Positions 4,457 through 54,815 of a stretch of 64,000 nt of DNA are shown here, piece by piece; positions within the stretch are counted from its first letter, which is position 1, and each line of letters opens with the position of its first letter. The stretch is from Escherichia coli (GTDB lineage: Bacteria > Pseudomonadota > Gammaproteobacteria > Enterobacterales > Enterobacteriaceae). The notes under the pieces were generated by a model that worked only from the letters and a program-made list of their open reading frames with translations, had not been told where the DNA came from and ran no database searches. Location: NCBI RefSeq assembly GCF_030013595.1, contig NZ_CP122768.1. The stretch is one strand, 5' to 3'. The position numbers and the translations under genes are program-made.

Positions 4457-5869
4457 ATGACGCGTTATCAACATCTGGCAACTCTGCTTGCCGAGCGGAT
4501 TGAGCAAGGGCTGTATCGTCACGGGGAGAAATTGCCGTCGGTGCGCAGCTTAAGTCAGGAGCACGGCGTCAGCATCAGCACCGTGCAGCAGGCGTATCAG
4601 ACGCTGGAGACGATGAAGCTCATCACTCCGCAGCCGCGTTCGGGGTATTTTGTCGCACAACGTAAAGCCCAGCCGCCAGTGCCGCCGATGACGCGTCCGG
4701 TGCAGCGCCCGGTGGAAATTACCCAGTGGGATCAGGTGCTGGATATGCTGGAGGCGCATAGCGACAGTTCCATTGTTCCGTTAAGCAAAAGCACGCCGGA
4801 TGTCGAAACGCCCAGCCTGAAACCGCTCTGGCGGGAGCTAAGCCGGGTAGTGCAGCATAATCTGCAAACCGTTCTCGGTTATGACTTGTTAGCCGGTCAG
4901 CGGGTATTGCGCGAGCAGATTGCCCGCCTGATGCTCGACAGCGGCTCGGTAGTCACCGCCGATGACATCATCATTACCAGCGGCTGCCATAACTCGATGT
5001 CGCTGGCGTTAATGGCGGTGTGTAAACCGGGCGATATTGTCGCGGTCGAATCACCCTGTTATTACGGTTCGATGCAGATGCTGCGCGGCATGGGCGTGAA
5101 AGTGATTGAAATCCCAACCGATCCAGAAACTGGCATCAGCGTTGAAGCGCTGGAACTGGCGCTGGAACAGTGGCCGATTAAAGGCATCATTCTGGTGCCA
5201 AACTGTAATAATCCGCTGGGATTTATTATGCCGGACGCGCGCAAACGGGCCGTTCTCTCTCTCGCTCAGCGTCATGATATTGTGATTTTTGAAGATGATG
5301 TCTATGGCGAACTGGCAACGGAGTATCCGCGCCCGCGGACCATTCATTCCTGGGATATCGACGGGCGAGTGCTGTTGTGCAGCTCGTTCAGTAAAAGTAT
5401 TGCACCTGGCCTGCGTGTGGGCTGGGTCGCGCCGGGACGTTATCACGATAAACTGATGCATATGAAATACGCCATCAGCAGCTTTAATGTACCGTCCACG
5501 CAAATGGCGGCGGCAACGTTTGTGCTGGAAGGTCACTATCATCGCCATATCCGGCGGATGCGGCAGACTTATCAGCGCAATTTGGCGCTTTATACCTGCT
5601 GGATACGGGAATATTTTCCCTGCGAAATCTGTATTACGCGCCCGAAAGGCGGATTTTTACTGTGGATAGAATTGCCTGAACAGGTCGATATGGTCTGCGT
5701 CGCGCGGCAGCTGTGCCGCATGAAAATCCAGGTGGCGGCAGGCTCGATTTTCTCAGCTTCCGGCAAATACCGTAATTGTCTGCGCATCAACTGCGCTTTG
5801 CCGCTCAGCGAAACCTATCGCGAAGCACTGAAGCAAATTGGCGAGGCAGTGTATCGGGCAATGGAATGA
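4457..5869 (+). CDS. yjiR: MocR/GntR-family transcriptional regulator with aminotransferase-like domain
   Basis: 470-aa ORF; N-terminal GntR winged-helix (SVRSLSQEHGVSISTVQQAYQTLE) plus fold-type-I PLP domain. Confidence 0.9.
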   Translation: MTRYQHLATLLAERIEQGLYRHGEKLPSVRSLSQEHGVSISTVQQAYQTLETMKLITPQPRSGYFVAQRKAQPPVPPMTRPVQRPVEITQWDQVLDMLEAHSDSSIVPLSKSTPDVETPSLKPLWRELSRVVQHNLQTVLGYDLLAGQRVLREQIARLMLDSGSVVTADDIIITSGCHNSMSLALMAVCKPGDIVAVESPCYYGSMQMLRGMGVKVIEIPTDPETGISVEALELALEQWPIKGIILVPNCNNPLGFIMPDARKRAVLSLAQRHDIVIFEDDVYGELATEYPRPRTIHSWDIDGRVLLCSSFSKSIAPGLRVGWVAPGRYHDKLMHMKYAISSFNVPSTQMAAATFVLEGHYHRHIRRMRQTYQRNLALYTCWIREYFPCEICITRPKGGFLLWIELPEQVDMVCVARQLCRMKIQVAAGSIFSASGKYRNCLRINCALPLSETYREALKQIGEAVYRAME

Positions 5870-7498: not shown

Positions 7499-8731
7499 AT
7501 GCCACGTTTTTTTGCTCGCCATGCCGCCACGCTGTTTTTCCCGATGGCGTTGATTTTGTATGACTTTGCCGCGTACCTGTCGACGGATCGGATCCAGCCA
7601 GGGATCATTAATGTGGTCCGTGATTTTAATGCCGATGTCAGTCTGGCCCCTGCTGCCGTCAGTCTCTATCTTGCTGGCGGTATGGCGTTACAGTGGCTGC
7701 TGGGGCCGCTTTCCGACAGAATTGGCCGCAGGCCGGTGCTGATTACCGGGGCGTTAATTTTTACCCTTGCCTGCGCCGCGACAATGTTCACCACGTCAAT
7801 GACACAATTTCTTATCGCGCGTGCAATTCAGGGCACCAGTATCTGTTTTATTGCCACCGTTGGTTATGTCACGGTGCAGGAGGCGTTCGGACAGACAAAA
7901 GGGATCAAGTTGATGGCGATTATCACCTCCATCGTACTGATTGCGCCGATTATCGGCCCGCTTTCCGGCGCAGCTCTGATGCACTTTGTGCACTGGAAAG
8001 TCCTTTTTGCCATCATTGCGGTTATGGGTTTTATCTCATTTGTTGGCTTACTGCTGGCGATGCCAGAGACGGTGAAGCACGGCGCGGTTCCATTTAGCGC
8101 CAAAAGCGTCTTGCGCGATTTTCGTAATGTCTTTTGCAATCGGCTGTTCCTCTTTGGCGCAGCAACCATCTCTTTAAGCTATATCCCAATGATGAGCTGG
8201 GTGGCTGTCTCGCCGGTGATCCTGATTGACGCAGGCGGCTTAACGACCTCGCAGTTCGCCTGGACACAGGTTCCGGTGTTCGGCGCGGTGATTGTCGCGA
8301 ATGCCATCGTGGCGCGTTTCGTTAAAGATCCGACCGAACCGCGGTTTATGTGGCGTGCCGTACCCCTTCAACTGGTCGGCCTCGCGCTGTTGATTATCGG
8401 CAATCTGCTGTCGCCGCACGTCTGGCTGTGGTCGGTGCTGGGCACCAGTCTGTATGCTTTCGGGATTGGTTTGATTTTCCCGACCTTATTCCGCTTTACG
8501 CTGTTTTCCAATAACTTACCGAAAGGGACCGTCTCCGCATCGCTGAATATGGTGATCCTGATGGTGATGTCTGTCTCGGTCGAAATCGGCCGCTGGCTGT
8601 GGTTTAACGGCGGTCGCTTGCAGTTTCATCTGTTAGCCGTTGTGGCAGGCGTTATCGTCGTTTTCACCCTGGCCGGATTGCTTAATCGCGTGCGCCAACA
8701 TCAGGCTGCCGAGCTGGCGGAGGAGCGGTGA
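7499..8731 (+). CDS. mdtM: MFS multidrug efflux transporter MdtM
   Basis: 410-aa hydrophobic ORF (start chosen at MPRFF...); MFS signature and synteny. Confidence 0.9.
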
Positions 8732-8771
8732 TTTTTGCGCGATCCTGCCGCCAGGCTCTATTCTTAACGTT

Positions 8772-10052
8772 ATGAATAAACTCATTGAACTCAGACGCGC
8801 CAAAATGTTGGCGCTCTCTTTACTGCTTATCGCCGCTGCTACCTTTGTCGTTACGCTGTTTTTGCCGCCCAATTTTTGGGTGAGCGGCGTGAAGGCGATT
8901 GCTGAAGCGGCGATGGTCGGCGCGCTGGCGGACTGGTTTGCGGTGGTGGCGCTGTTTCGCCGCGTGCCGATTCCGATCATTTCTCGTCATACGGCGATTA
9001 TCCCGCGTAATAAAGACCGGATTGGCGAAAATCTCGGTCAGTTCGTGCAGGAAAAATTTCTCGATACCCAATCGCTGGTGGCATTGATTCGACGTCACGA
9101 ACCGGCGTTGTTGATTGGCAACTGGTTTAGTCAGCCAGAAAACGCCCGCCGCGTTGGTCAGCATCTGTTGCAGATCATGAGCGGTTTTCTTGAACTGACC
9201 GATGATGCGCGTATTCAGCGCCTGCTTAAGCGCGCGGTCCACCGGGCGATTGATAAGGTTGATCTTTCTGGCACCAGTGCGTTGATGCTGGAGAGTATGA
9301 CCAAAAACGATCGTCATCTGGTGCTGCTGGATACGCTGATCGCACAGTTGATCGCCCTTCTCCAGCGCGATAAATCGCGCAAGTTTATCGCCCAGCAAAT
9401 TGTTCGCTGGCTGGAGAGCGAGCATCCACTGAAAGCCAAAATTTTGCCCACTGAATGGCTGGGCGAACATAGCGCGGAGTTGGTTTCTGACGCGGTGAAT
9501 TCTTTGCTTGATGATATCAGCAGCGATCGTGCGCATCAGATCCGCCATGCGTTTGATCGCGCCACCTTTGCCCTGATCGACAAGTTGAAAAACGATCCTG
9601 AAATGGCAGCGCGAGCCGATGCCGTAAAAAGCTATCTGAAAGAAGACGAAGCTTTTAACCGCTATCTCAGTGAATTGTGGGGAGATTTACGGGAATGGCT
9701 GAAAGCGGATATCAACAGTGAAGATTCTCGAGTGAAAGAACGTATCGCGCGGGCGGGTCAATGGTTTGGCGAAACGTTAATTGCCGATGATGCCTTGCGG
9801 GCGTCGTTAAATGGTCATCTGGAACAAGCCGCGCACCGCGTCGCGCCTGAGTTTTCCGCATTCCTGACGCGACATATCAGCGATACGGTAAAAAGCTGGG
9901 ATGCGCAGGATATGTCGCGGCAAATCGAGTTAAATATCGGCAAAGATCTGCAGTTTATCCGTGTCAACGGTACGCTGGTTGGCGGTTGTATTGGGCTAAT
10001 TTTGTATTTGCTTTCGCAGCTCCCGGCCTTGTTCCCCCTCGGCAATTTTTAG
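8772..10052 (+). CDS. yjiN: DUF445 inner-membrane protein YjiN
   Basis: ORF in track; start chosen at MNKLIELRR after the mdtM stop (426 aa); synteny. Confidence 0.85.
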
Positions 10053-32770: not shown

Positions 32771-34114
32771 ATGCATGTGCTTAACATTCTCTGGGTGGTA
32801 TTCGGCATTGGTCTGATGCTGGTACTGAATTTGAAGTTCAAAATCAATTCAATGGTGGCTTTGTTGGTGGCGGCGCTGTCCGTCGGGATGCTGGCGGGCA
32901 TGGATTTGATGTCGCTGCTGCACACCATGAAAGCGGGCTTCGGCAACACGCTGGGGGAACTGGCTATCATCGTGGTGTTCGGTGCGGTCATCGGTAAATT
33001 GATGGTCGACTCCGGCGCGGCGCACCAGATAGCGCATACGCTGCTGGCGCGTCTCGGTCTGCGCTATGTACAGCTGTCGGTGATTATCATCGGCCTGATT
33101 TTCGGTCTGGCGATGTTTTATTAAGTGGCCTTTATCATGTTAGCGCCGCTGGTTATTGTTATTGCCGCCGAAGCTAAAATTCCGTTCCTGAAACTGGCGA
33201 TCCCGGCAGTAGCAGCTGCCACTACCGCACATTCACTGTTCCCACCGCAGCCGGGTCCGGTGGCGCTGGTGAATGCTTATGGCGCGGATATGGGGATGGT
33301 TTATATCTATGGCGTACTGGTGACGATCCCAAGTGTCATCTGCGCAGGTCTGATCCTGCCGAAGTTCCTCGGCAATCTTGAGCGCCCAACGCCATCATTC
33401 CTGAAAGCAGATCAACCGGTAGATATGAATAATCTGCCCTCTTTCGGCGTTTCGATTCTGGTGCCGCTGATCCCGGCGATCATTATGATCTCTACCACCA
33501 TCGCCAATATCTGGCTGGTAAAAGATACCCCTGCCTGGGAAGTGGTTAACTTTATCGGTTCCTCGCCGATTGCAATGTTTATTGCGATGGTGGTTGCATT
33601 CGTACTCTTCGGCACCGCGCGCGGGCACGATATGCAGTGGGTGATGAACGCTTTTGAAAGCGCGGTGAAGAGTATTGCAATGGTGATTCTGATCATCGGT
33701 GCGGGTGGCGTGCTGAAGCAGACCATCATCGACACCGGCATTGGCGACACCATCGGCATGTTGATGTCCCACGGCAATATCTCGCCCTACATCATGGCAT
33801 GGCTGATCACCGTACTGATTCGTCTGGCGACGGGTCAGGGTGTCGTTTCGGCGATGACCGCTGCCGGGATTATCAGTGCAGCAATCCTTGATCCAGCAAC
33901 TGGTCAGCTGGTTGGCGTGAATCCGGCGCTGCTGGTACTGGCGACGGCTGCGGGTTCCAACACCCTCACCCACATTAACGATGCATCTTTCTGGTTGTTC
34001 AAAGGTTACTTTGACCTGTCAGTAAAAGATACGTTGAAAACCTGGGGTCTGCTGGAGCTGGTCAACTCCGTGGTTGGGCTGATTATTGTGCTGATTATTA
34101 GCATGGTAGCGTAA
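32771..34114 (+). pseudogene. gntP: GntP-family gluconate/fructuronate permease interrupted by an in-frame TAA
   Basis: Track ORFs 32771..33124 and 33125..34114 are in one frame; the only break is TAA at 33122..33124 (...[15 protein letters not shown]...). Combined length 447 codons, as expected for GntP. Confidence 0.8.
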
Positions 34115-46473: not shown

Positions 46474-47454
46474 ATGAACGCAATAATATCGCCCGATTAT
46501 TACTATGTTCTTACCGTTGCTGGTCAGTCTAATGCCATGGCGTATGGCGAAGGACTGCCATTACCGGACGGGGAAGATGCGCTTCATCCCAGAATTAAAC
46601 AATTAGCGAGATTTGCGCATACGCATCCCGGAGGCCCGTCATGTCACTTTAACGACATTATTCCACTGACTCACTGCCCACACGATGTTCAGGATATGCA
46701 GGGTTATCACCATCCTCTGGCAACGAATCATCAAACACAGTACGGCACCGTTGGCCAGGCACTGCATATAGCACGGAAATTACTGCCCTTCATTCCTGAT
46801 AATGCAGGGATTCTCATCGTTCCGTGTTGCCGTGGCGGATCGGCTTTTACCGCGGGCAGCGAAGGGACATATTCAGAACGGCACGGAGCCAGCCATGATG
46901 CTTGTCGTTGGGGAACGGATACTCCGCTATACCAGGATTTAGTCAGCAGAACGCGAGTCGCACTGGCAAAAAATCCGCATAACAAATTCCTCGGCGTATG
47001 CTGGATGCAAGGCGAATTTGACTTAATGACCAGTGACTACGCGTCACACCCTCAATACTTTAATCATATGGTTGAAGCCTTTCGTAGGGATCTAAAACAA
47101 TACCATTCTCAGCTTAATAATATTACTGACGCACCGTGGTTTTGCGGCGATACCACCTGGTACTGGAAAGAAAATTTCCCTCATGCGTATGAAGCGATTT
47201 ATGGCAATTATCAAAATAATGTTTTAGCCAATATTATTTTCGTCGACTTCCAGCAACAAGGTGAAAGAGGACTGACGAACGCGCCTGATGAAGATCCGGA
47301 CGATTTAAGCACGGGATATTACGGTTCAGCGTACCGGTCACCGGAGAACTGGACGACGGCACTGCGAAGCAGTCATTTCAGCGCGGCAGCCCGTCGGGGG
47401 ATTATTTCTGACAGGTTTGTAGAAGCAATTTTGCGGTTTTGGCGCGAAAGGTGA
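46474..47454 (+). CDS. nanS: 9-O-acetyl-N-acetylneuraminate esterase NanS
   Basis: 326-aa ORF; synteny in the nanCMS operon. Confidence 0.85.
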   Translation: MNAIISPDYYYVLTVAGQSNAMAYGEGLPLPDGEDALHPRIKQLARFAHTHPGGPSCHFNDIIPLTHCPHDVQDMQGYHHPLATNHQTQYGTVGQALHIARKLLPFIPDNAGILIVPCCRGGSAFTAGSEGTYSERHGASHDACRWGTDTPLYQDLVSRTRVALAKNPHNKFLGVCWMQGEFDLMTSDYASHPQYFNHMVEAFRRDLKQYHSQLNNITDAPWFCGDTTWYWKENFPHAYEAIYGNYQNNVLANIIFVDFQQQGERGLTNAPDEDPDDLSTGYYGSAYRSPENWTTALRSSHFSAAARRGIISDRFVEAILRFWRER

Positions 47455-47608
47455 GCGTTCATTAATTTGATTTATTTGCATCCATTAGCGCTTTTAACTG
47501 CTCCGGCGAAAACGGTGGTTTGCGTCGGTGCAACATCGCATGGCAATTGGGGTACACAGGCAGCAAAAAAACAAATGAGATCAAGGTAATATATCTTCAC
47601 TTGCAGGC

Positions 47609-48538
47609 TTGAACAGCAGAAAATTTGCGAGCATGATCGCAATTATTTCACTGCCAGGGATATCAATGGCTTCCAGTAAATCGCTACAGCAGGCAATTGC
47701 CAATATAAAAATCTGGCACAAGGGTGAACAGCGCGCGCCGCATAAGCCATTGTTATTGCTATACGTATTAGCGGGATACCTGAATGGACATCCGCGCCTT
47801 TTCGATTATGGATCGGAAATCTACGAACCTCTGCACAGTTTACTGGAACGTTTTGGGCCACAGCGTTCACAGTACCGACCTGATATGCCGTTCTGGCGAT
47901 TACAAGGCGACGGATTCTGGCAATTACACAATGCCGAGCTTTGCTCAACAGCAGGGAGCAGCCGACAACCACCAGTGAAGGAACTGATTGAATACCACGT
48001 TGCAGGCGGTTTCGATGAACAGCACTACGCCCTGGTAACTGGCAATAAAAAACTCATCAATACTCTGGCGCAACAGATACTCGAAGCGCACTTCACCGAG
48101 AGTATTCAGGAAGAAATTGCTGACGAGCTGGGTTTTGATCTCCAGCAAATCCGTAAACAGCGCGACCCGTTATTTCGCAAAAATGTATTACGCGCTTATA
48201 AATACCAGTGCGCGATATGTGGCTTTAATATGCGCCACGACGACGCCACCGTCGCGCTTGAAGCGGCGCATATAAAATGGAAACAGCACGGCGGTCCTTG
48301 TGAAATTCCTAATGGCCTAGCGCTTTGCGCAATTCACCATAAAGCCTTTGATAAAGGATCGATTGGCCTGGACGAAAATATGCGGGTACTGGTATCAGAT
48401 GCGGTAAACGGCGGAGGGATCGTTGAGAGATTATTCTGGGATTTTGACGGGAAAACTATTGCGTTGCCGCAGGTGCGTAAAAATTACCCTTATGAGGTGT
48501 TTGTTGAGTGGCATCGGAAAGAGGTTTTTAGGGGGTGA
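47609..48538 (+). CDS. HNH-endonuclease domain protein with uncharacterised N-terminal domain (possible type IV restriction-like enzyme)
   Basis: C-terminal HNH signature CAICGF...EAAHIKWKQHGGPCEIPNGLALCAIHHKAFD; N-terminal ~200 residues unassigned. Confidence 0.65.
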   Translation: MNSRKFASMIAIISLPGISMASSKSLQQAIANIKIWHKGEQRAPHKPLLLLYVLAGYLNGHPRLFDYGSEIYEPLHSLLERFGPQRSQYRPDMPFWRLQGDGFWQLHNAELCSTAGSSRQPPVKELIEYHVAGGFDEQHYALVTGNKKLINTLAQQILEAHFTESIQEEIADELGFDLQQIRKQRDPLFRKNVLRAYKYQCAICGFNMRHDDATVALEAAHIKWKQHGGPCEIPNGLALCAIHHKAFDKGSIGLDENMRVLVSDAVNGGGIVERLFWDFDGKTIALPQVRKNYPYEVFVEWHRKEVFRG

Positions 48539-49094
48539 GGTTGATAACTATCGCAGTATGTTCAATATTGCTGACATAATCAGTGCAGGATCTTGCCGCT
48601 AGTTTACAACTCGCCTTCGATAGCGGCGCAAAACGAGTTCTGTTGCCGATATCCTGGGCTATGGATATTTCAACAGTTCCGGCAGAGTTGTTTACCAAGT
48701 TTCAGGTAAGTTTTTACTCATAACCGGTTGATGCGGTTTATAAGGCGCTGGATGTGAATTAACACATTCCTCAGTTTATTTACAAAAGGATTATTCCCAT
48801 TTGATATAATATAAGTGCCAATTTACTTTTTCAATGGAATATATCTCGGCTAAATAACAATAAAACTTATCGCTAATGGATTAAATAAACAATTTTCTAA
48901 TTTATTTCACCACCTTTGATATAGAAATTGATGGTGTTGTCGCTGCCATTGCTTATGGTGATGATAAAATCCACGTTTCTGGATCGGTGCGTAGAAAATC
49001 ATCACTACCTTGATATTTTGATGCGATATGATCATACCGTTCCGTAGTACCAATTTCAACTTCAGGCTAAACCCCAACATTAAAAAATTTAGAG

Positions 49095-49136
49095 TTATTC
49101 ACTGATTATATTATCATTAATATAATCAGTGAATAA
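49095..49136. repeat. Perfect 19-bp inverted repeat with 4-bp spacer
   Basis: TTATTCACTGATTATATTA-TCAT-TAATATAATCAGTGAATAA, checked base by base; lies 116 bp downstream of the 651-aa gene. Confidence 0.8.
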
Positions 49137-49251
49137 CATGGACTATATAATAAATTGCTCTAATCATTTCCCTTACGAATATATGGGCCAAAAGCCCAAG
49201 AATCATAATAAGGGTGATGGACTAATTTTTCATTAAATCGAACACTATAAG

Positions 49252-51207
49252 TTAATTTTTTATATTTTTACGTACAGCATTAATACTGGGCAAAGAGGAA
49301 AGATAATCTATAAACTTATCGATAGTGATTTCCCCTTCGCAACACTCAAACCCATCAATGATATTTTTCGCCATTTTTCCATTTTCATTTGTTTGATATA
49401 TCACTCCAGGTATTCGTTGAAAAAAACTAGATAATGCATATTTGTCCGCTACATATGTATCATCCACATGATATTTCCCACCGAGCATAGTTGTAGTAAC
49501 AATAAGCTTATACACACCTTTGGGTTGCCATGTTGATGGTAGTTCGAATTCTTTAATGATCACATCAAGATGATTAAGATAATGTTCAGAAATTCGATTT
49601 ATTTGTTGAAAATAAGAACGCATAAATTTATTATTATGATCATGTATTAATGAGCTATCTCCAACGATGTTACACACTTGCTGATAGTACTTACCATAAT
49701 ATATTGGTTGACCATTTGATTTTAGTTCTGTAAAAATCAAACAATCATCCAAGAGAATCACGCAATCGCACTGATAATTAGCATGAGCATCAATTGGAGA
49801 AGCTTTAATCCCCGCATCACGAACTTGTTTTATAAATTGTTGTTCATGAAATCGCCCTTTACTTGCTTGAGAAATTTTTTTGGAACCAAATAATGACATT
49901 AGAGAGCGAGTCACTGAGCTATTTGCTATTAATGCAGGCATTAAGAATAAACCGTCCATACAGGGAATAAATGGGCAATCATTAAGATCATGTGATTTTG
50001 AATTGAAGGTAAAATAATCTATCAGTTTTTTTGCTGCATCTGCTGCAATCCCCTTACGTTGAAAGAATGATAACCAACTCTCACGGCTTTTTATGATCAG
50101 CCAGCGCTCCAACTGTAGGGGTATAGGCTTTGTCGATGAAAATCTTTTGCTCATTTCTTCTTTAGATAACTCGACTAAACATTGATAAGCGTGCACCCAA
50201 TTAAATAATGATATATTCCCATATTCTTCATGAAGGTCATCAGGAGACATATTTTCTAACTCGCTTAGATGAAATGAGCTAAAAACGCCATCAGAATTTA
50301 AGTAAGATGGCATATGATCCTTTACCCAACTATTTAGATGAAAATGTTTGTTACTAAATTCATGAACTTCGCTATATAGATGTGACGCTCTCATCATTAG
50401 TCTATTTCTTGCAATCTCATAATCTCGGTATAAACAAAAACTATCAACCTCAAGAGAGTAAATGTTATTATCCAATTTTGTAAATACTGCACTACTTAGT
50501 CTGAAAAAATCTCTTACTCTGCTTAATGAGTCAAAAACATTCCACTCATTAAGGTACCCTCCCATTGAAAGCAAGGTTTGTTTATTCACACAAGAAGTTA
50601 GTTTCAATGGCCCATGAGTCCGTAAATAAGAAAATATTCTTCCGGTGTAATTGGCTACCTCATCAAATGCCCTATCGATAACTCGAAAATATTCGATATC
50701 AGGTTCAGCATGAATATTAATATTTTCAGAAACGATAAATAATGGAAAAATCCTCTTCATTTTTTTAGGATCATTGACCACAACCAAGGATGATAATGAT
50801 GATAAAAACATCTCACAAAACATGATGAGATTAAGTATTAATGCATGTGATTTTTTTGTATTTTTACGCCAAATACCAGCACATTTTGTAGCCGCAAAGA
50901 AAGAATTATTTATATCATGCATAATTTTACATTGACTCTCGAACTCAGAGATTAGTTCAATGTTATCAGGAAATGAGTTTCCTAGCTCATTAATACATTT
51001 TTTGAATGTATTGTTATACTCAACTTCAGTCTGAACTGAAAATCTATTATAATAGATGGAAGATATTCTTAGCACATCCAAGGCGATATCTATACTAATA
51101 TCATCTCTTTTTATGTACTCACAAAAAAAAGAACAAAACTGTTTCGGGTCGTTAGCAAGATTACTAATTCTAGTGGTATCATAAACTTTTTCCATTTTTC
51201 CATACAT
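49252..51207 (-). CDS. Uncharacterised low-GC 651-aa protein at the leuX islet
   Basis: Long ORF in strongly AT-rich DNA immediately 3' of tRNA-Leu (leuX); possible PD-(D/E)xK-like motif (CDCVILLDDCLIFTELK) near residue 480; otherwise no recognisable domain. Confidence 0.7.
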   Translation of the reverse strand: MYGKMEKVYDTTRISNLANDPKQFCSFFCEYIKRDDISIDIALDVLRISSIYYNRFSVQTEVEYNNTFKKCINELGNSFPDNIELISEFESQCKIMHDINNSFFAATKCAGIWRKNTKKSHALILNLIMFCEMFLSSLSSLVVVNDPKKMKRIFPLFIVSENINIHAEPDIEYFRVIDRAFDEVANYTGRIFSYLRTHGPLKLTSCVNKQTLLSMGGYLNEWNVFDSLSRVRDFFRLSSAVFTKLDNNIYSLEVDSFCLYRDYEIARNRLMMRASHLYSEVHEFSNKHFHLNSWVKDHMPSYLNSDGVFSSFHLSELENMSPDDLHEEYGNISLFNWVHAYQCLVELSKEEMSKRFSSTKPIPLQLERWLIIKSRESWLSFFQRKGIAADAAKKLIDYFTFNSKSHDLNDCPFIPCMDGLFLMPALIANSSVTRSLMSLFGSKKISQASKGRFHEQQFIKQVRDAGIKASPIDAHANYQCDCVILLDDCLIFTELKSNGQPIYYGKYYQQVCNIVGDSSLIHDHNNKFMRSYFQQINRISEHYLNHLDVIIKEFELPSTWQPKGVYKLIVTTTMLGGKYHVDDTYVADKYALSSFFQRIPGVIYQTNENGKMAKNIIDGFECCEGEITIDKFIDYLSSLPSINAVRKNIKN

Positions 51208-51883
51208 CCTATTGTCTAAATTACTATAAAACTAGCCACTTAACTAATAATTATAAATTTCATCTTTTACACCTTGCATTTTTATAACCAATGAAATCTA
51301 CAACAAGCAACTGATGGATAATCCGATATTGGTCGCATTTAATGGCATGGTAGCAAAGTTTTCATCACATACCTCCTTTGCACCAGAATAAACGCCAGAG
51401 ATCTGAAATTGCGAGTACACTACAGAAATTGTACTGCCGGTCCCATCAGCATAAAACCATAGTTACACAGGTAATCATCATTATTCGCCAAGATAATAAA
51501 TATTATTCGGTAGAATAGCGTTCTCAGGTGGTCAGTAAAATTGTCTTCAACAAGATGTCTGCGCATCTCGTCTGCTAGCCCTACATAACTGCTCTCGACC
51601 GAAACTATTTATTGAATGTTCACCAAGGTGGCGTGGAGACAAAATGACGTCTTTTGATATTAGCTACCTGAGCCACATGGTCAAAACGTTCAAGTAGCAT
51701 ACCGAAACCACCCTGCCCACGTAATGTGGACGATGCAGCTTCCAGCCAGAGCAAACTTGGGACCATCGACTACAAAATGAAGAATACTGAACTGCTTTTC
51801 TGGCAGGCCTATATACTGCACGGATATGGGTGATTTCAGACACAAAAAAAGCCGCTCTTGAGCGACTCGATTTGCATACGGTG

Positions 51884-51968
51884 TGGTGCCGAAGGCCGGA
51901 CTCGAACCGGCACGTATTTCTACGGTTGATTTTGAATCAACTGCGTCTACCGATTTCGCCACTTCGGC
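51884..51968 (-). tRNA. leuX: tRNA-Leu (anticodon CAA), leuX
   Basis: Reverse complement of 51884..51968 is GCCGAAGTGGCGAAATCGGTAGACGCAGTTGATTCAAAATCAACCGTAGAAATACGTGCCGGTTCGAGTCCGGCCTTCGGCACCA, with wild-type CAA anticodon and encoded CCA end. Confidence 0.95.
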
Positions 51969-52163
51969 ACTGAAGAGGTATGCGGAAAACGTTGTGGATT
52001 ATACCTGTCGCACGCCACCATGCAAGCGCCAGCTTGCTCGCACCTCGCTAAGTGCTGAAATTTTCAGCATTGCATACAGCGATGTGTAACCTTTGTCACA
52101 CTCCAGGCACCCCGCCCTGCCATGCTCTACACTTCCCAGACAACACCAGAGAAGGACCAAAAA

Positions 52164-53183
52164 ATGTCGATGATAAAAAGCTATGCCGCAAAAGAAGCTG
52201 GCGGCGAACTGGAACTTTATGAGTATGATCCCGGTGAATTGAAGCCACAATATGTTGAAGTGCAGGTGGATTACTGCGGGATCTGCCATTCCGATCTGTC
52301 GATGATCGACAACGAATGGGGATTTTCACAATATCCGCTGGTTGCCGGGCATGAGGTGATTGGGCGCGTGGTGGCACTAGGGAGCGCCGCGCAGGATAAA
52401 GGTTTGCAGGTCGGTCAGCGTGTCGGGATTGGCTGGACGGCGCGTAGCTGTGGTCACTGCGACGCCTGTATTAGCGGTAATCAGATCAACTGCGAGCAAG
52501 GTGCGGTGCCGACGATTATGAATCGCGGTGGCTTTGCCGAGAAGTTGCGTGCGGACTGGCAATGGGTGATTCCACTGCCAGAAAATATTGATATCGAGTC
52601 CGCCGGGCCGCTGTTGTGCGGCGGTATCACGGTCTTTAAACCACTGTTGATGCACCATATCACTGCTACCAGCCGCGTTGGGGTAATTGGTATTGGCGGG
52701 CTGGGGCATATCGCTATAAAACTTCTGCACGCAATGGGATGCGAGGTGACAGCCTTTAGTTCAAATCCGGCGAAAGAGCAGGAAGTACTGGCGATGGGTG
52801 CCGATAAAGTGGTGAATAGCCGCGATCCGCAGGCACTGAAAACACTTGCGGGGCAGTTCGATCTCATTATCAACACCGTCAACGTCAGCCTCGACTGGCA
52901 GCCCTATTTTGAGGCGCTGACCTATGGCGGTAATTTCCATACGGTCGGTGCGGTTCTCACGCCGTTGCCGGTTCCGGCCTTTACGCTGATTGCGGGCGAT
53001 CGCAGTGTCTCTGGTTCTGCTACCGGCACGCCTTATGAGTTGCGTAAGCTGATGCGCTTTGCCGCCCGCAGCAAGGTTGCGCCGACCACCGAACTGTTCC
53101 CGATGTCGAAAATAAACGACGCCATCCAGCATGTGCGCAACGGTAAGGCGCGTTACCGCGTGGTTCTGAAAGCCGATTTTTGA
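52164..53183 (+). CDS. ahr: Zn-dependent NADPH aldehyde reductase Ahr (YjgB)
   Basis: ORF with start chosen at [14 protein letters not shown] (339 aa); MDR family Zn-ligand motif GHEVIG and CGICHSD. Confidence 0.9.
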
Positions 53184-53312
53184 TCCCTTTGCCGGGTGCC
53201 TGTCGCCCGGCACTTAACTCTCTTTGGAAGGCGTCTCGCAATCTGCTGAATTTAGCGGTGAAGAGTGCGCAGCCGTTGCCTATACTCCAGGCAGGAAACT
53301 GGAGGAAATCTC

Positions 53313-54815
53313 ATGAGCGAACCCCTGTTAATTGCCCGCACGTCGGATACAGAACTGTTTTTATTGCCGGGAATGGCGAATCGTCACGGGCTGATTACTG
53401 GCGCAACGGGGACGGGTAAAACCGTTACGCTGCAAAAACTGGCAGAGTCATTGTCGGAAATCGGTGTTCCGGTGTTTATGGCCGATGTGAAAGGTGATTT
53501 AACGGGAGTTGCGGAGGGAGGTACATCTTCGGAAAAACTGCTCGCAAGGCTTAAAAATATCGGCGTAAATGACTGGCAACCTCATGCTAATCCGGTGGTG
53601 GTGTGGGATATCTTTGGCGAGAAAGGCCACCCGGTGCGGGCGACGGTTTCGGATCTGGGGCCGCTGTTGCTGGCGCGACTGTTGAATCTCAACGATGTGC
53701 AATCTGGCGTGCTGAATATTATCTTTCGTATTGCTGATGATCAGGGGCTGTTACTGCTCGACTTTAAAGATTTGCGGGCGATTACCCAGTACATCGGCGA
53801 TAACGCCAAATCCTTCCAGAATCAGTACGGTAATATCAGTAGCGCATCGGTTGGTGCCATCCAGCGCGGGCTGTTATCGCTGGAACAGCAAGGCGCAACA
53901 CACTTTTTTGGTGAGCCGATGCTGGATATCAAAGACTGGATGCGCACCGATGCCAACGGTAAAGGCGTTATCAATATCCTCAGCGCCGAGAAGCTTTATC
54001 AGATGCCGAAACTGTACGCCGCCAGTCTGCTGTGGATGCTTTCAGAGTTGTATGAACAATTGCCGGAAGCGGGCGATCTGGAGAAACCAAAACTGGTGTT
54101 TTTCTTCGACGAGGCACATCTGCTGTTTAACGATGCACCGCAGGTACTGCTGGATAAGATTGAGCAGGTAATAAGGCTTATTCGCTCAAAAGGCGTGGGC
54201 GTCTGGTTCGTTTCGCAAAACCCGTCAGATATTCCGGATAATGTGCTCGGCCAGCTCGGTAATCGCGTTCAACACGCTTTACGGGCTTTTACGCCCAAAG
54301 ATCAGAAAGCAGTAAAAGCTGCGGCGCAAACCATGCGGGCCAATCCAGCGTTTGATACCGAAAAGGCAATCCAGGAACTGGGGACCGGCGAGGCGTTGAT
54401 CTCGTTTCTCGATGCGAAAGGAAGTCCTTCAGTGGTGGAGCGGGCGATGGTGATCGCACCTTGTTCGCGAATGGGGCCGGTGACGGAAGATGAGCGTAAC
54501 GGCCTGATTAATCACTCCCCTGTGTATGGCAAGTATGAAGATGACGTGGACCGCGAGTCCGCCTATGAGATGTTGCAAAAAGGCTTTCAGGCCAGTATCG
54601 AGCAGCAAAATAATCCTCCCGCGAAAGGGAAAGAGGTGGCGGTGGATGACGGTATTCTTGGTGGATTGAAGGATATTTTGTTTGGCACTACCGGACCACG
54701 CGGCGGGAAGAAAGATGGAGTGGTGCAAACAATGGCGAAAAGCGCCGCCCGCCAGGTGACGAATCAGATTGTGCGTGGGATGTTGGGGAGTTTGCTGGGG
54801 GGGAGAAAAAGGTAA
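53313..54815 (+). CDS. yjgR: DUF853 P-loop NTPase YjgR
   Basis: ORF with start chosen at [11 protein letters not shown] (500 aa); Walker A GATGTGKT. Confidence 0.9.

Follow-up and report, generated by a model that had tools for sequence, protein, structure and literature searches.

Organisation of the leuX-pepA region

The window analysed here is a 64,000-nucleotide stretch of Escherichia coli DNA in which the interval from leuX to yjgR occupies positions 51969-53312. A sequence-only reading had given these coordinates, which begin with the first base past leuX and end with the last one ahead of the yjgR ATG. The left landmark is leuX, encoding tRNA-Leu(CAA) (51884-51968, minus strand; ARAGORN), which is 100% identical to the K-12 gene and is a known integration hot spot. 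It is followed on the plus strand by ahr (yjgB; 52164-53183), an intact gene for a 339-aa NADPH-dependent aldehyde reductase. The product contains the Pfam domains ADH_N and ADH_zinc_N of zinc-type medium-chain dehydrogenases and is 98.2% identical to its K-12 counterpart over 339 aa (97.4% at the nucleotide level); together with the position next to leuX and the conserved synteny, these features identify it as Ahr/YjgB. A spacer of 129 bp (53184-53312, plus strand), previously estimated at about 130 bp, separates ahr from the right landmark, yjgR (53313-54815, plus strand). This gene is also intact, is 94.5% identical to K-12 yjgR at the nucleotide level, and encodes a 500-aa HerA-like P-loop ATPase (DUF853) with a HerA_C domain (Pfam, 840 bits). 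The genes lptG, lptF and pepA are found 3' of yjgR.

On its other side leuX is separated from nanM/nanC/fimB by a short islet without an integrase and not by KpLE2. The islet (47300-51883, 38% GC) directly adjoins leuX, at the place where K-12 has the KpLE2 prophage remnant. It encodes an HNH_2 'phosphorothioated DNA-binding restriction endonuclease' (47609-48538) and, on the minus strand, a 651-aa ORF (49252-51207) that gave no Pfam match. The same islet is present in APEC O1 and in well over 60 other complete genomes.

The nearest complete genome is that of strain HCP5S3_I2 (NZ_CM149870.1), with 99.9% identity over 12.6 kb; its PGAP annotation has identical gene names, including ahr, and the identical 129-bp gap. 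The two sequences differ elsewhere. An intact 656-aa ORF of the window (12669-14639, plus strand) corresponds in NZ_CM149870.1 to a 'type III effector' / pentapeptide-repeat gene split by IS1, and the ORF layout of the first ~4 kb of the window differs from that of the yjiT/yjiS/IS3 region of NZ_CM149870.1. These differences indicate that the window comes from a close relative of the NZ_CM149870.1 assembly and not from the same assembly. The particular ahr-yjgR sequence of the window is rare, being matched at an identity of at least 99% in only 3 of 5,433 records.

Structure of the ahr-yjgR junction

The breakpoints were located by aligning the window to the left and right ends of the K-12 interval. 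The left break lies directly after the ahr TGA at 53183, and homology to K-12 resumes at 53274, 39 bp before the yjgR ATG. The intervening 90 bp (53184-53273, plus strand) are specific to the idn-less allele, and K-12 has at the same position a 5,087-bp segment that carries the idn genes. No match to the 90-bp segment was found by blastn in the whole K-12 locus, and in global alignment it scored no better than shuffled sequences, with z = -0.9 for the K-12 idnR-yjgR spacer and z of -0.9 to -0.5 for idn-positive spacer sequence in general. Since these 90 bp have no counterpart in K-12, the alignment argues that the difference between the window and K-12 is a replacement, 90 bp exchanged for 5,087 bp, rather than a clean deletion. 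As many as 90 of the 129 bp of the spacer are not derivable from the ends of the K-12 sequence, unlike the scar of a recent deletion. The possibility that the segment is a remnant of idnK or idnR was rejected on the same two comparisons, blastn giving no match and global alignment remaining at the level of shuffles.

Just 3' of the ahr stop, the 90-bp segment contains a sequence able to form a hairpin, UGCCGGGUG-CCUGU-CGCCCGGCA (53191-53213, plus strand), with a 9-bp stem followed by a U-rich stretch. A scan for terminators gave a match at 53194-53215, and the predicted RNA fold has an energy of -19 kcal/mol (z = -2.1). In alignments read by eye, a hairpin-capable palindrome occurs at the same place in Escherichia albertii and also in Citrobacter werkmanii, where the stem sequence differs. 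The hairpin is probably the intrinsic terminator of ahr.

The rest of the spacer is a 39-bp core, CGTTGCCTATACTCCAGGCAGGAAACTGGAGGAAATCTC (53274-53312, plus strand), that is common to all alleles of the locus and forms the right border of the variable slot; 38 of its 39 bases are the same in K-12. It contains a -10-like hexamer, TATACT (53281-53286), and a GGAGG ribosome-binding site. A scan of the spacer with the sigma-70 consensus returned no full match, and the role of TATACT as a promoter element of yjgR is suggested by its conservation. The motif GTTGCCTATACTCC upstream of yjgR is kept in E. coli, E. albertii, both Citrobacter loci, Enterobacter cloacae and Leclercia, the exception being Enterobacter sp. 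Ag1, and defines where the slot ends on the right, regardless of what lies upstream. The window therefore shows each element of the idn-less junction, namely the ahr stop, a spacer of ~129 bp with the specific 90 bp, the 39-bp core, and yjgR.

Absence of the idn cluster

In the K-12-type chromosome (O16:H48), 5,126 bp separate the ahr stop from the yjgR start. This interval contains idnK, on the opposite strand, followed by idnD, idnO, idnT and idnR, all five being metabolic or regulatory genes. The GntII L-idonate system to which they belong was reportedly first described by Bausch et al. in 1998. Its pathway for L-idonate and 5-ketogluconate, encoded by idnK-idnDOTR, is outlined in the relevant passages of PMC6054384 and PMC8545132.

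A tblastn search of the whole 64 kb window with the K-12 Idn proteins returned paralogue-level matches only and no idn gene; IdnT matched the gntP pseudogene (40%) and IdnD matched Ahr (33%). Consequently idnD, idnO, idnT, idnR and the divergent idnK are all absent from the window, and the comparison of the loci together with tblastn bears out the earlier observation that idn is missing between ahr and yjgR here and present in K-12. On the basis of the published pathway, the subsidiary GntII route should be closed to the strain, which would then not use L-idonate or 5-ketogluconate, a niche carbon source, by this route; the prediction may be useful to annotators. Its use of gluconate would rest on GntI (gntT/gntU/gntK), the genes of which lie outside the window.

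The window also contains a gluconate permease gene, gntP (32771-34114, plus strand), which has an in-frame stop at codon 118 (...MFY*VAF...); in the nearest genome, PGAP labels the gene an 'internal stop' pseudogene. As idnT is absent too, two gluconate-family permeases are missing in the strain.

Relocation of the genes within the genome was addressed with a chimeric query that joined 2.5 kb of the rare leuX-adjacent islet to K-12 idnD, for which 60 matches were listed. On the nearest chromosomes, NZ_CM149870.1 and NZ_CM149862.1 (99.9% identical), this query matched once only, at the islet, and idnD was not found. Across all genomes, a query with idn matched 5,042 places in 5,026 genomes, so that a second copy is a great rarity. 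The borders of the K-12 idn segment showed neither direct nor inverted repeats.

Distribution of the two junction types in E. coli

Among 5,426 complete E. coli genomes, 3,212 (59%) have a contiguous match across the ahr-yjgR junction and 2,039 (38%) have a full idn cluster, counted as a match to at least 80% of the K-12 idn interval; ~175 have neither. Strains with the idn-less junction include O157:H7, O111:H8, ATCC 8739 and ETEC1703, and the loci of O157:H7, ATCC 8739, ETEC1703 and others are annotated as ahr followed by yjgR with a 129-bp gap. The idn genes are present in K-12, BL21 derivatives and APEC O1. Most complete E. coli genomes have the idn-less junction, and K-12 represents the minority state.

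These counts change the meaning that had been attached to the junction. It does mark the strain as non-K-12, as had been stated, but this is nearly uninformative when 59% of complete genomes share it, and its presentation as a notable departure from a K-12 norm does not hold, the idn-less state being the commoner of the two. At the ahr-yjgR locus, K-12 is a minority reference.

Variation in the presence of idn has been reported before. In the relevant passages of PMC8545132, idnODRKT occurs in 83% of the pks-positive genomes and in ~31% of the pks-negative ones, and is missing from one entire ST95 clade. According to the corresponding parts of other reports, idnK is absent in the H30 and H22 groups of ST131 and present in H41 (PMC5369007), and L-idonate genes are enriched in HUS-associated STEC (PMC4216125).

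Among the individual loci compared, those of strains 67-1 and 2013C-4974 both have a frameshifted ahr and a yjgR that is annotated as longer (1,638-1,683 bp) and overlapping lptG. In 2013C-4974, idnD and idnO are annotated as pseudogenes.

The ahr-yjgR slot in other Enterobacteriaceae

Outgroup loci were taken from a genome scan with YjgR. The matches listed were mostly from distant Betaproteobacteria and included six Enterobacteriaceae loci and two Yersinia loci; this sample is without Salmonella, E. fergusonii and Klebsiella. In the two Yersinia loci examined, ahr was not found upstream.

According to tblastn with the K-12 proteins, ahr is directly followed by yjgR in E. albertii and C. werkmanii. 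The spacers in these species (132-139 bp) are homologous to that of the window, and the allele-specific 90 bp are conserved in both (z = 10-15 relative to shuffles). Citrobacter sp. FP75 has the arrangement ahr-idnK-idnDOTR-yjgR, as in K-12 and with the same borders. Its idn genes are 78-83% identical to those of K-12 at the nucleotide level, and its flanking genes 83.6% (ahr), 82.2% (yjgR) and 84.9% (lptG). The two idn-positive spacers, those of K-12 and FP75, show mutual homology (z = 9.1) and no homology to the idn-less spacers.

A third content of the slot occurs in E. cloacae, Enterobacter sp. Ag1 and Leclercia, where ~1.9 kb lie between ahr and yjgR. In E. cloacae this region contains a minus-strand gene for a Dak1/Dak2 dihydroxyacetone kinase (8217-9863 of locus L006), and the GTTGCCTATACTCC core again forms the end of the slot in both E. 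cloacae and Leclercia. Judged from the gene content of these loci, the slot has at least three alternative contents across genera.

Each of the empty and idn alleles is found in both Escherichia and Citrobacter with divergence at the level of genera, which indicates that both alleles are old. That the 90 bp are common to E. albertii and C. werkmanii likewise points to an old allele and not to a deletion of K-12 material. The homology of the spacers indicates a single origin for each of the two alleles.

Flank diversity and probable recombination

Diversity was compared across thirteen E. coli loci, of which seven lack idn and six carry it, the window included. Within E. coli, nucleotide diversity in ahr and yjgR is 3.6-4.7% (about 4-5%), versus 0.6-1.8% in lptF and lptG of the same strains. 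Diversity of ahr and yjgR between the idn-positive and idn-less groups equals that within the groups, and the only fixed difference falls within the final 20 bp of ahr. K-12 yjgR is 97.9% identical to that of the idn-less O157:H7 and only 94-95% identical to those of other idn-positive strains. The leuX-adjacent islet of the window likewise occurs in genomes of either state; 29 of those that carry it, APEC O1 among them, have idn. The notion of two ancient linked haplotypes was rejected because strains with and without idn do not group separately in the trees of ahr and yjgR.

A search for signs of a mobile-element origin of idn at its K-12 borders revealed no direct or inverted repeats, integrase, transposase or IS. 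The sole hint of a foreign origin is the lower GC content of the idn segment, 47.3% versus 54-56% for ahr, yjgR, lptG and lptF. Given mosaic flanks whose sequences are unlinked to idn state, and borders that lack mobile signatures, the mechanism favoured by the evidence is that alleles are exchanged through homologous recombination in the flanking genes.

The idn genes of E. coli differ by at most 1.1% at the DNA level, with dS of 0.00-0.08, versus dS of 0.08-0.25 for ahr and yjgR in the same strain pairs. Such a low dS in idn is not predicted by simple co-transfer with the flanks; an idn haplotype that spread recently within older, scrambled flanks would fit it.

Origin of the idn-less allele

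Taken together, the data make it very probable that the ahr stop and the 39-bp yjgR core enclose a small variable slot whose alleles are switched by recombination in the flanks, and that the allele present in the window is the common, idn-less one. In this allele the slot is filled by the 90 bp, comprising the probable ahr terminator hairpin and sequence upstream of yjgR. In the alternative allele, present in K-12 and ~38% of E. coli, the 90 bp are replaced by the 5,087-bp segment of lower GC content that encodes IdnK, IdnD, IdnO, IdnT and IdnR. Both alleles appear to be old, occurring as they do in Escherichia and Citrobacter, and strains most likely switch between them through homologous recombination in the flanking core genes, within the leuX hot region.

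The order in which the two states arose was approached through the spacers themselves. Between the right half of the 90 bp and the region upstream of E. cloacae yjgR there is a weak but significant similarity (z = 3.2-3.7; 1-7 of 2,000 shuffles were as good), and the same comparison with the idn-positive spacer gave z of about 0. This similarity and the low GC content of idn lend modest support to the empty spacer as the ancestral type, so that the empty spacer probably represents the ancestral-type architecture and idn an ancient insertion, although this polarity is weakly supported.

The reverse polarity, in which idn was present in the common ancestor of Escherichia and Citrobacter and the 90-bp allele arose once by replacement and then spread across species by recombination, is a possible history that we consider rather unlikely. 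It would account for the same idn borders in K-12 and FP75 and for a divergence of idn equal to that of the flanks, and Salmonella also carries idn genes, genomic location aside (PMC6054384). It accords poorly with the weak homology of the right half of the 90 bp to the yjgR upstream region of Enterobacter, which is idn-less there, with the GC content of idn below that of the flanks, and with the idn-less state of E. albertii, C. werkmanii and most E. coli.

We also propose, tentatively, that the slot may be a long-lived polymorphism that crosses genera. Its three contents (the empty 90 bp, idnK-idnDOTR and Dak1/Dak2) would all end at the yjgR core, and the empty and idn alleles would have persisted, or been exchanged again, in Escherichia and Citrobacter since before these genera split. 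The idn of E. coli would then be a young haplotype (dS 0-0.08) set in older flanks (dS up to 0.25).

A recent deletion of idn in the lineage of the strain, from a K-12-like ancestor, is very unlikely. The site is occupied in K-12 and empty in the window, and idn does decay in some lineages, as illustrated by the idnD and idnO pseudogenes of 2013C-4974 and by those of idnT and idnO in Salmonella Pullorum (PMC6054384). However, a deletion cannot create the 90 bp at 53184-53273, which are missing in K-12 and kept in E. albertii and C. werkmanii; the identical junction is found in 59% of complete E. coli genomes of many backgrounds, and the K-12 idn borders are without short repeats that could mediate such an event.

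That the junction is an assembly collapse, or that the idn genes lie elsewhere in the genome, is the least credible explanation and extremely improbable: although only 64 kb of the genome are in view, the same junction is present in 3,212 complete genomes and two other species, K-12 idn has no flanking repeats, the two nearest chromosomes match the chimeric query at the islet only and without idnD, and idn was matched at 5,042 places in 5,026 genomes. Of the two challenges that had been foreseen for the absence of idn, its relocation and a collapsed assembly, neither finds support. The feature is neither a deletion scar nor an artefact.

For the interpretation of such loci, 'absent relative to K-12' is therefore not equivalent to 'deleted', the empty allele having a conserved sequence of its own and probably representing the older architecture.

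Comparison with known systems

In K-12, the GntII system occupies the ahr-yjgR interval, and the flanks of this interval in the window are the same orthologous genes. The window differs from K-12 in having none of the five GntII genes and in carrying the alternative, empty allele.

The presence or absence of idn is already known as accessory-gene variation, and in this respect the finding is real but ordinary. The counts obtained here, 38% with idn and 59% with the empty junction, agree with the published polymorphism as described in the relevant parts of those accounts. In the same parts, idn is treated without a description of the sequence at the junction or of the 90 bp specific to the idn-less allele, and without mention that Citrobacter has both alleles.

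The slot is also unlike an insertion site of the tRNA/integrase type, since its borders are without integrase, att repeats or insertion sequence. Its setting is nevertheless that of a described recombination region, in which a low-diversity idn beside hypervariable flanks is a small population-genetic curiosity. A region of phylogenetic incongruence of ~200 kb is centred on leuX (Touchon et al. 2009, PMC2617782). The slot lies 0.2-1.4 kb from leuX within this leuX-fim hot region, and the mosaic structure of ahr and yjgR, unlinked to idn state, matches the behaviour published for it (PMC2617782).
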